From: Nitrososphaeria archaeon
GTDB lineage: Archaea > Thermoproteota > Nitrososphaeria > JACIWG01
Direction: 5' to 3'
Length of the DNA: 64,000 bases
NCBI GenBank assembly: GCA_050011875.1
Contig: JBEKIG010000002.1
Span: forward strand, 96,001 to 160,000
The notes beneath the pieces are model-generated. The model did not search any database, was not told the origin of the DNA, and saw only the letters and a program-made list of their open reading frames with translations. Each line of letters starts with the position of its first letter. Positions within the stretch are counted from its first letter, which is position 1. The translations under genes were made by a program, and so were the position numbers. Positions 28,269 to 30,820 of this stretch are shown here, piece after piece.

Positions 28269-28793
28269 CTACTTTACGATAGTAAGGCTCTTAACCACCT
28301 TTATGTTTTGCAGCTCAGAAATAACCTCTGATGGAACTTCTCCTTCTATTATCAGTGTTAGCTTTGGTTCCTTATTCAATTCAGGGTCGTCGGCTACCGC
28401 TTGTCTGATGATCAGTTTATTCTTGGCCATAATAGAAGTTACTTCTGATATTATGCCAGGTCTTTCCGCCTGAGATGTTATAATAATGACCGTAAATCCA
28501 AAATAGTGGGCAACATCCTTGAAGAATGTTATAGGAGTTAATTTTGTAAAGATATTAACTAGATTAGGATTAGATAGTATCAAATCAGCGGTTTGTCTTA
28601 CTACCCTACGATCGACATTTAGAGCACGAGATATGGATATGTCTGGGATTTCAATCTCTTCAGAGTAATAGCGCCCATTGCTACCAACTCTGATGCCCGT
28701 CTCCAGCATCTTTCTTAATATGATTGCCTGAGCTTTTCTCCGTCTTGTATTGCTTTCTATCATAGACCAAATTCCTCTTTCGTGAGCCAACAT
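28269..28793 (-). CDS. trpY: TrpY-type ACT-domain regulator of tryptophan genes (COG2150)
   Basis: ISRALNVDRRVV HTH-like motif, PGIISEV...IRQAVADDPEL ACT domain; divergent from trpB2 with TGTACA boxes in between. Confidence 0.8.
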   Translation of the reverse strand: MLAHERGIWSMIESNTRRRKAQAIILRKMLETGIRVGSNGRYYSEEIEIPDISISRALNVDRRVVRQTADLILSNPNLVNIFTKLTPITFFKDVAHYFGFTVIIITSQAERPGIISEVTSIMAKNKLIIRQAVADDPELNKEPKLTLIIEGEVPSEVISELQNIKVVKSLTIVK

Positions 28794-28847
28794 TGATTCA
28801 ATGGACAGATCTGTTTAATAAAAGTCTTTCCGAGACGCTTCATACTA

Positions 28848-28873
28848 TGTACATTTTTGTACATGAATGTATA
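28848..28873. promoter_or_regulatory. Three TRP boxes (TGTACA-N4-TGTACA-N4-TGTATA)
   Basis: TGTACA 28848-28853, TGTACA 28858-28863, TGTATA 28868-28873; matches the known TrpY TGTACA consensus. Confidence 0.8.
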
Positions 28874-28899
28874 TTAATGATTATATTAATGCATATAGC

Positions 28900-30273
28900 A
28901 TGGTCAAAGATCAAGGCAACAAGATAAATCTGCCAGCAGAGGATATACCTAGATCATGGTATAACATTCTTCCGGACCTACCTGAACCGCTTCCACCCCC
29001 ACTTGATCCTGCAACGGGTAAGCCGGCTAATCCTGCTGCGTTGGAAAGAATATTTGCGAAAGAATGTGTGCGCCAAGAGGTTTCAACTGACAGCTTTATA
29101 CCCATCCCTTCTGAAGTTCTTGAGATATATCTGACGTTGGGAAGACCAACCCCTCTCTTCAGAGCGAAGAGACTTGAAAGAATTCTAGGGACGCCGGCTG
29201 AAATATACTTCAAGCGTGAAGACTTAAGTCCGGTTGGAAGCCACAAGCCGAATACCGCTATAGCACAGGCATACTACCTTTCCAAGGAAGGTGTTAAGAA
29301 GGTTACAACCGAGACAGGTGCAGGACAGTGGGGTTCAGCTCTTGCACTTGCAGGATCCTTTTTTAACTTAGAAATAATGGTTTTTATGACGAGGAGCTCA
29401 TATAACACCAAACCTTATCGAAAAATCCTGATGGAACTTTTCGGCGCAAAGGTGTACTCTTCTCCAAGTGATCAGACAAAAATTGGGCGTGAATTTCTAG
29501 GTTTGGATAAGGAACATCCTGGCAGCCTAGGTATTGCGATAAGCGAAGCATTGGAAATCGCCTTGAGTGATGAACATAGAAAATATTCTTTGGGAAGCGT
29601 ACTAAATCACGTTTTACTGCATCAGACCATAATTGGTTTGGAAGCAAAAAAACAGATGGAAATGGTCGACAAACAACCTGACATAATCGTAGGCTGTATT
29701 GGTGGTGGAAGCAATTTTGCTGGCATTTCTTATCCTTTCATACACGATAAGCTCAAGAATAAAAGTGAGACCCAATTCCTTGCGGTTGAACCTAAGGCTG
29801 TGCCGTCGACAACCCGAGGAAGGTACATCTACGATTTTGGTGATTCAGGAGGCATGACACCTATGCTCAAGATGTATACGCTTGGCAACAGATTTCCAAT
29901 TTCGCCAATTCATGCTGCAGGGCTGAGATATCATGGTAAAGCGCCATCTCTATCATTGCTGATAAAAGATAAGGTGGTTAACAGTATTTCTTATGACCAA
30001 AAGGAAATCATGGACGCAGGAGTTCTTTTTGCTAAGGCTGAAGGAATAGTACCTGCGCCGGAAACAAATCATGCAATAAAGGCTGTAATCGATATTGCTT
30101 TAAAGGCAAAGGAAAAAGGAGAGAAAAAGACGATTCTTTTCAATTTCAGTGGGCATGGACTGCTAGATCTCAACGCATATCAAGATATGCTCAATAGAAC
30201 AATAACGGATTATGAACCAACTGATGAGCTCATAAACAAGTCCCTATCCCAGGTTCCAAAAGTTGGTAACTAA
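28900..30273 (+). CDS. trpB2: Tryptophan synthase beta chain 2
   Basis: [23 protein letters not shown] (PLP Lys), [34 protein letters not shown] 28900 preferred because the upstream ATG 28867 overlaps the operator. Confidence 0.93.
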
Positions 30274-30820
30274 ATTGAGAAGAATCAACTCTTCCAATAC
30301 AAAGTATGAAAATACCTTTTGCAAACTAGGTTTACATAATGGAGAATCCTACAAATTCGAAAGCTTAGAAGCCATAATTGTAGAAATAAACGAGCTTAAA
30401 GAACACGAGAAAATAGATGAACAATATTGCGAACAGTTAAAAAGTAGAATACAGAAAGACGGTTTTATCAAGAAGGCAATAGCAGTTGATGCTAACACCC
30501 GAATAGTGTTAGACGGACATCATAGGCTGAACGCTTTAAGGAGACTGGGTTGCAAAAGGATACCGGCTATTCTCGTAGACTATAATAGTCCGATGATTCA
30601 GGTGCAAGGATGGAACAAAGATACTGTCAGCAAACAAGCGGTAATAGTGGCGGGAACAACCCCAAATAAACTTCCTCCCAAGACAACCAGACACACAGTA
30701 ATCATCAATGGGTTATCGAGACACATTTCTTATATAGAGAAAAATGTGAACATACCTTTATCGGAGCTAAAGCCTAAAAATTATGATGCAATGCTTTCAA
30801 AATTTGTTGCCAAAAAATAA
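30263..30820 (+). CDS. ParB/Srx-fold protein, compact SerK/SbnI-like serine kinase
   Basis: ELKEHE, VLDGHHR, VDY...W, SKQAV, PPKTTRH, NIPLSEL match the SerK motif order; ORF overlaps the trpB2 stop. Confidence 0.7.

Follow-up and report, generated by a model that had tools for sequence, protein, structure and literature searches.

The window analysed here, a stretch of 64,000 nucleotides of contig JBEKIG010000002.1 (positions 96,001 to 160,000 of the forward strand, assembly GCA_050011875.1) from a Nitrososphaeria archaeon, harbours one compact module composed of a gene for a TrpY-like regulator, two perfect TGTACA boxes, the stand-alone tryptophan synthase gene trpB2 and a small open reading frame (ORF) with a ParB fold, as the original prediction had described it. 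By its sequence the small protein is a relative of the serine kinases SerK and SbnI without the approximately 100-residue middle domain of SerK, and we consider it rather probable that it acts as a compact serine kinase which feeds O-phospho-L-serine (OPS) to TrpB2 under TrpY-like control. This proposal builds on homology, predicted fold, motif conservation, a recurring gene pairing and box-like repeats.

According to the mechanism proposed, the compact protein would phosphorylate free L-serine to OPS and, with its gene co-transcribed with trpB2, OPS would be made in step with TrpB2, which would condense OPS with indole to tryptophan with phosphate leaving. The divergent TrpY-like regulator would bind the TGTACA repeats overlapping the promoter, so that the trpB2/SerK-like pair would be switched on upon tryptophan scarcity. 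The earlier interpretation, serine to phosphoserine to tryptophan in one operon, is supported by comparative evidence, and the module may have the 'salvage' role that was ascribed to it.

The small protein and its TrpB2 partner

The motifs originally named are all found in the 185-aa translation, namely H48-E49, D84-G-H-H-R88, W117, P138-P-K-T-T-R-H144 and I164-P-L-S-E-L169, and the central insertion is indeed missing, with approximately 17 residues in the place of approximately 113 in SerK (phmmer against the PDB). Comparison with SerK and SbnI, as had been proposed, places both at the top: the best NCBIfam match of the small protein is archaeal SerK (NF053625, E 6.8e-15) and the second SbnI (NF033589, E 1.2e-8), the latter at 34.6 bits, under the model cut-off of 350. 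In the phmmer alignment residues 33-118 correspond to SerK 14-103, with 1vk1 and 5x0b at E 6e-9, and PPKTTRH at 138-144 pairs with SPKTTRH within 216-226 of SerK. An AlphaFold2 model built on an alignment of 58 relatives has a mean predicted local distance difference test score (pLDDT) of 87.8, with low confidence for the first 30 residues; the best nine Foldseek matches of this model in the PDB are all SerK or SbnI. With VIA-align, 132 residues of the model superpose on 1vk1 (of SerK's 232, spanning 11-242) at Z 17.6 and a root mean square deviation of 2.3, SbnI (5uje) follows with Z 16.1 and the whole SerK/SbnI range is Z 13-17.6, while the next fold class, sulfiredoxin (Srx) and ParB chains, reaches Z 8 or less (7-8).

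H48 and E49 are invariant in 58/58 relatives and D84, R88, K140 and H144 nearly so. H48-E49 aligns with H29-E30 of SerK, and E49 thereby takes the position of the SerK catalytic base, which is mutated (E30A, E30Q) in PDB entries 5x0e and 5x0j with bound substrate. The same H48 and E49, together with P139 and H144, are invariant throughout an alignment of 14 TrpB2-linked or long forms. For a protein of this kind we infer kinase activity on free serine, with ATP, ADP or another nucleoside triphosphate (NTP) as the candidate phosphate donor. One TrpB2-linked clade (L149-L152) has DGMHR for DGHHR, does not possess the conserved W and carries a C-terminal extension of approximately 60 residues, apparently helical and charged.

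The partner enzyme passes the cut-offs of NCBIfam NF009057 (689.2 bits, cut-off 366) and TIGR01415 (671.5 bits, cut-off 518.85), and its top solved relatives, 6hul_B (E 5.8e-145) and 4qys_B (E 5.7e-138), align over near full length. As the solved TrpB2 chains start to align at residue 19-25 of the trpB2 ORF and positions 28867-28927 hold promoter-like sequence, the true start is probably ATG 28927 (M21). TrpB2 enzymes have been reported to need phosphoserine (Busch 2014, as cited in the available text of PMC11917138), and a preference of the window TrpB2 for OPS over serine would be in line with this; a dedicated OPS source for TrpB2 is named nowhere in the searchable literature. Co-folding of the window TrpB2 with the SerK-like protein gave a score of 0.01 (mark 0.32), which is not counted either way.

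Recurrence of the gene pair and other genomic contexts of the family

The adjacency of trpB2 and a SerK-like gene is not unique to the window genome. It is found in at least 22 genomes, mostly labelled as metagenome-assembled genomes (MAGs) of Nitrososphaeria and Bathyarchaeia, a lower bound that is drawn from the matches listed. Either gene may come first, and a divergent TrpY-like gene is usually present. Within the family of the window genome, four of nine other genomes (G404, G407, G408 and G409) show a TrpY-like gene divergent from trpB2 followed by the SerK-like gene, with identities to the window of 70-73% for TrpB2 and 66-71% for the TrpY-like protein; in G401, a 94%-complete genome of the same genus, no match was obtained for trpB2 or for a SerK-like gene. 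The same order, deduced from the match coordinates of TrpB2 and SerK-like protein, is present in G288, G133, G013 and G109, while the reversed order, with the SerK-like gene before trpB2 and again a TrpY-like gene in front, characterizes G330 and G148. In G379, the SerK-like gene after trpB2 is of the long form, and the locus gave no TrpY-like gene. When bacteria and archaea were scanned with a single genome for each species and the best 80 loci were kept, 15 of these had trpB2 as a same-strand neighbour, and 13 of the 15 a divergent TrpY-like gene as well; the 15 are labelled mostly as Bathyarchaeia and Nitrososphaeria MAGs, and ten of their genomes were new to the count. Among the 29 best non-self loci with 1.5-kb flanks no TrpB2 was encountered.

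The distance between trpB2 and the SerK-like gene is 5-6 nt in four loci and 9-36 nt in three, and in one locus the two overlap by 47 nt; where the order is reversed, the distance is 80-116 nt. A quick maximum-likelihood tree was made from 115 SerK-like domains, 12 of them TrpB2-linked; by parsimony the TrpB2 label has to change five times on it, at least two of these changes being forced by well-supported branches, so that on this tree the TrpB2 pairing is present in at least two separate SerK-like lineages. TrpB2-SerK fusions were found neither in 18 longer relatives nor in 13 long representatives scanned, which is weak evidence of their nonexistence.

Directly after trpB2, nine Bathyarchaeia loci (including L193:2480-3610) encode an ATP-NAD-kinase-fold protein (PF01513, PF20143), which may be a second TrpB2-linked kinase. 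A counterpart with 69% identity in genome G403 (L164:120-1288) is split in two ORFs.

The family itself is large and hardly named. A word-indexed search retrieved 25 relatives of 127-217 aa, mostly nameless or labelled 'ParB N-terminal domain-containing protein', in agreement with the 'ParB-like' annotation that the original prediction had called usual; those with this label come from Nitrososphaeria or Thermoprotei MAGs. HMMER, run exhaustively against 1.84 billion representatives, identified 1520 proteins at E ≤ 0.001 and 482 at E ≤ 1e-10, the best 150 of them mostly 100-200 aa long. In the phylum sample 283 of 401 genomes have a SerK-like match at E ≤ 1e-5, a count that includes the long SerK-like forms (approximately 240-290 aa), and the compact family spans Nitrososphaeria, Bathyarchaeia, other archaea and bacteria.

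Beyond trpB2, the SerK-like family is associated in genomes with OPS and serine metabolism. When the 80 best listed loci were taken with 6-kb flanks, a SerK-like ORF could be called in 78, and in 26 of these a gene of the CysK/CysM/O-phosphoserine sulfhydrylase (OPSS) family is fused to it or no more than three genes away. The cysteine synthase gene is located directly downstream on the same strand in 13 of those loci, often abutting or with a 4-nt overlap, and is fused to the SerK-like gene in two of the 78. A representative of these neighbours matches the Aeropyrum pernix OPSS at E 4e-55, compared with 8e-27 for the best O-acetylserine enzyme, and in all longer relatives found (574-595 aa; 18/18) a SerK-like domain is joined to a cysteine synthase in one protein. 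G330, G148, G288, G407 and G408 encode two or more paralogs each, one of which is TrpB2-linked; G330, G148 and G288 have another that is fused with a cysteine synthase or linked to its gene.

A third context is bacterial: at 17 loci, labelled Deltaproteobacteria, Syntrophaceae, Syntrophorhabdus and Thermodesulfobacteriota, the SerK-like gene opens a glycine-cleavage operon with gcvH and gcvPA after it, in five of them with a SerA-like 2-hydroxyacid dehydrogenase gene upstream. This arrangement fits the serine-to-3-phosphoglycerate route proposed for Thermococcus kodakarensis (PMC5120207, in the text available). Three unrelated contexts, TrpB2, OPSS-type synthases and gcv/SerA-like genes, thus have serine and O-phosphoserine in common. 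The gcv-linked relatives (L168-L191, L208, L229) share 45-52% identity with the window protein, and some of their loci have an ACT-domain protein upstream along with the SerA-like dehydrogenase.

The OPSS-type synthases beside compact SerK-like genes carry N-terminal domains of approximately 100-160 residues that are themselves homologous to the SerK-like ParB fold. An alignment of this N-domain (L095:1192-1521 and 15 other loci) matched the SerK-like family in hhalign at a probability of 97.9% (E 3.8e-13, 74 columns), and the window model superposes on the N-domain of the A. pernix OPSS (PDB 1wkv, residues 2-76) with Z 6.5. Both HE and DGHHR are absent from these N-domains, which may be dead kinase domains used as docking sites.

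In one archaeal family, labelled as Caldarchaeales/Aigarchaeota-type MAGs (L039, L044-L046, L049, L051, L057, L062, L068, L073), the gene is linked to trpA/trpB1. Here the SerK-like gene always adjoins trpA of a trpF-trpB1-trpA cluster, co-directional with trpA in two genomes and convergent within few nucleotides in eight.

Proposed TrpY-like control, locus layout and the metabolism of the window genome

Over nearly the whole NCBIfam TrpY_fam profile (NF053754, positions 1-162 of 163), the TrpY-like protein scores 169.6 bits and narrowly misses the cut-off of 180; its Pfam ACT match is weak (23.8 bits, cut-off 27). Homologs with 36-71% identity are divergently placed in related modules. The pair TGTACAN4TGTACA, with at most one mismatch allowed, occurs only here in the window, with 0.07 expected and none of 100 shuffles reaching 2, and the perfect pair is found once in the 2.64-Mb genome, in which one-mismatch pairs amount to 9 forward sites compared with 3 for a reversed control. 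TGTACA, which we take to be the TRP-box consensus, is present exactly in four of ten related TrpY-like intergenic regions, and all ten, inspected by eye, contain a TGTrCn-N4-TGTGCA-like pair beside a AAAGTATAAATA- or TATATAAA-like element. On contig C20, TGCACATTTTTGTGCA in the trpE promoter, approximately 50 nt upstream of the start codon (L141:3229-3244), resembles the trpB2 box pair, which suggests one TrpY-like regulon predicted to cover both the trpB2 module and the trpEGDC-B1-A operon. A one-mismatch pair on contig C12 gave no lead; it overlaps the start of a 112-aa ORF without a Pfam family that adjoins the lysyl-tRNA synthetase gene. In Methanothermobacter thermautotrophicus TrpY binds TRP boxes between trpY and trpE (PMC6737238, available text), and repression of the trpB2 module by the TrpY-like protein would be the analogous role.

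The features of the locus are collected below. The overlap of the small ORF with the trpB2 stop codon, part of the original prediction, amounts to 11 nt from TTG 30263, but disappears with the alternative in-frame TTG 30275, which lies 1 nt past the stop. With this second TTG, and a relative of 65% identity (P0003) that begins at the matching position, overlap and abutment are both possible, and with either start the two genes are tightly packed. The next ORF of at least 50 aa on the forward strand does not begin before 30973.

Features of the trpB2/SerK-like locus, in window coordinates
Feature	Position	Strand	Remarks
TrpY-like regulator gene	28269-28793	-	174 aa; ACT-like domain at the C-terminus; divergent from trpB2
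TRP-box-like repeats	28848-28873		TGTACA 28848-28853, TGTACA 28858-28863, degenerate TGTATA 28868-28873; 10 bp spacing
Putative TATA-like element TATATTAA	28870-28877	+	AT-rich, directly downstream of the boxes; predicted from sequence
trpB2, stand-alone TrpB-like pyridoxal phosphate (PLP) enzyme	28867-30273	+	First ATG 28867; stop TAA 30271-30273
Compact SerK/SbnI-like ParB/Srx-fold protein	30263-30820	+	185 aa (TTG 30263) or 181 aa (TTG 30275); proposed free L-serine kinase
T-rich stretch past the SerK-like stop	30845-30874	+	Possible transcript end, predicted from sequence

Downstream of the module, the GC content jumps at 31000-33500 to 57-60% compared with approximately 40% around, and this stretch, with a glycosyltransferase gene (31333-32406, forward strand) and a radical-SAM gene (32412-33377, reverse strand), looks like a horizontally acquired islet.

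The metabolism of the window genome leaves TrpB2 as the sole contextual partner of the kinase-like gene, since the genome possesses a single SerK-like gene, an OPSS-type cysteine synthase gave no match in it, and cysteine is made via CysE and CysK, which adjoin each other on contig C4. The full canonical trpE-G-D-C-B1-A operon on contig C20 does not include a SerK-like gene. The top SerB match reaches 79.7 bits against a cut-off of 144.

Alternative explanations and comparison with known systems

A number of observations weigh against a serine kinase dedicated to TrpB2. The SerK model is matched with 54.9 bits against a cut-off of 380 and only over profile positions 13-103 of 244; the middle domain (roughly residues 104-215), which forms one side of the cleft in SerK, is absent, so that the small protein may not bind serine alone; and in the 14-sequence alignment W117 and H86 are not kept in every TrpB2-linked clade. 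As to gene context, the pairing is facultative: TrpB2 exceeds the cut-off in 282 of 401 phylum genomes with adjacency in eight (among the matches listed), and G403, which belongs to the family of the window genome, has a NAD-kinase-fold gene after trpB2 but gave no SerK-like gene. None of the three amino acid contexts occurs within 3 kb in 51 of the 80 best species-scan loci. One archaeal family has the SerK-like gene beside trpA/trpB1 (10/78 and 9/80 loci), and the TrpB1/TrpA synthase uses serine, not OPS. In more distant members (P0088, P0136, P0097, P0159) the SerK-like domain is joined to ligases of the PaaK/F390-synthetase type, to a sugar-phosphate nucleotidyltransferase and to a hexapeptide-repeat protein similar to gamma-carbonic anhydrase, so that the family as a whole extends beyond serine and the SerK-like fold may serve in other small-molecule pathways as well. 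The window genome also encodes ten SerA-like dehydrogenase paralogs, none over the full-length cut-off, through which the ordinary phosphorylated pathway may be an additional source of OPS, so that a kinase may not be required for it. From the literature, a SerK-like archaeal protein bound CTP, not ATP (bioRxiv 10.1101/2025.10.10.680097), and the Thermococcus TrpY homolog does not regulate trp genes (PMC6737238), both as given in the text available.

The missing middle domain would also suit a protein that binds a nucleotide without being a kinase and serves fold-type-II PLP enzymes (TrpB2, cysteine synthases) as a subunit for regulation or scaffolding, perhaps as an allosteric activator in the place of TrpA. 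ParB-fold proteins can be switches or scaffolds (PMC12704722, available text), and the SerK-like N-domain of OPSS-type partners, homologous but devoid of HE and DGHHR, indicates that non-catalytic ParB-fold domains are retained on PLP enzymes. It is exactly those residues, however, that the OPSS N-domains have lost and that the small proteins keep, H48 and E49 without exception and DGHHR nearly so, and the bacterial gcv/SerA-like context offers no PLP beta-replacement partner to be regulated, so that we regard a purely regulatory subunit as improbable. To a phosphotransferase with another role, which either converts phosphoserine and ADP to serine and ATP, replacing SerB and feeding a serine-using TrpB, or acts on another small hydroxy-amino acid, we assign an equally low likelihood. 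The adjacency to trpA/trpB1 in one archaeal family and the low-scoring SerB match of the window genome would agree with such a role, as does GapMind 2026, which proposes a different, SbnI-like DUF1015 family as SerB replacement or serine kinase (PMC13759103); the available text of the same source, though, calls the reverse reaction thermodynamically unfavourable, the commonest partners, OPSS-type synthases and TrpB2, consume OPS, and the trpB1 operon of the window genome is without a SerK-like gene.

It is very improbable that the small protein stands beside trpB2 by chance and is a DNA-binding protein or nuclease of the common ParB-like kind, or else a sulfiredoxin. Such an identity could be read from the public name of its relatives, a weak Pfam ParB_N match (18.3 bits, cut-off 26.3) and the fold matches to Srx and ParB chains at Z 7-8, but the match to the ParB partition protein model TIGR00180, at 17.5 bits, stays under the cut-off of 58.45, and SerK and SbnI are structurally far closer. 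We discard chance adjacency, as the pair is found repeatedly with either gene first; the pairing extends over at least 22 genomes and several SerK-like clades.

The compact serine kinase that supplies TrpB2 could be part of a bolder picture, in which the compact SerK-like family (482 clusters at E ≤ 1e-10) would comprise free-serine kinases that dock physically onto PLP beta-replacement enzymes and serve as their dedicated OPS source. TrpB2 would then be one half of a nucleotide-driven two-enzyme indole capture under tryptophan control, the dead OPSS N-domain would dock the live kinase via ParB-style dimerization, and the partner enzyme would supply the missing middle domain of the kinase in trans. 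All of these elements together make a speculative reading, which we think unlikely to hold as a whole.

If the proposed role of the compact protein is true, there is a concrete pathway from serine and NTP to OPS and from OPS and indole to tryptophan, and a function for hundreds of clusters labelled 'ParB N-terminal domain-containing protein'. A ParB/Srx core of approximately 140 residues may then suffice for small-molecule phosphorylation. TrpB2 is widespread in the phylum sample, its role and the origin of its OPS being unexplained in the searchable literature. A literature search, in which supplements were not opened, found no published pairing of trpB2 with a SerK-like gene and no text that joins TrpB2 with a serine kinase, and the main text of a 2025 survey of ParB-CTPases, as far as available, mentions neither tryptophan nor cysteine synthase.

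The closest known system is SerK of T. kodakarensis (TK0378, PDB 5x0b-5x0k; 1vk1 from Pyrococcus), with which the window protein shares the ParB/Srx core that binds the nucleotide, the catalytic HE, DGHHR of the nucleotide site, the W past the core and PKTTRH. SerK of Thermococcus is an ADP-dependent free L-serine kinase with approximately 100 extra residues, which the window protein does not have. In T. kodakarensis, SerK provides the OPS that a PLP enzyme uses to make cysteine (PMC5120207, available text); the partner of SerK is CysK, whereas that of the window protein is TrpB2. According to the available text of Makino 2016 (PMC5120207), no clear-cut SerK homologs exist outside four genera of the Thermococcales and Desulfurococcales, and free-serine kinases would, with the compact family included, reach far past these.

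SbnI, named bifunctional regulator/OPS synthase by NCBIfam, is a protein of 254 aa in which the middle domain is present, in contrast to the window protein. Following work by Verstraete in 2018, this SerK-family kinase reportedly makes OPS for the fold-type-II PLP enzyme SbnA in the staphyloferrin B pathway of Staphylococcus aureus, with sbnI and sbnA presumably in one operon. The SbnI partner is a CysK-family enzyme for a siderophore precursor, the window partner a TrpB. Sulfiredoxin, a ParB/Srx-fold protein of approximately 100 residues, works as an ATP-dependent phosphotransferase with no additional domain, but has a protein substrate, contains a Cys in the motif where the window protein has DGHHR and matches the window model far more weakly than SerK. 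The A. pernix OPSS (1wkv) is the top solved relative of the synthases next to the paralogs, not of the partner of the window gene. On the regulatory side, the window shares with the TrpY/TRP-box system of M. thermautotrophicus a divergent regulator gene and repeated boxes in the common promoter region, whereas there the boxes sit between trpY and trpE and here the target of the TrpY-like protein would be trpB2 together with the SerK-like gene.

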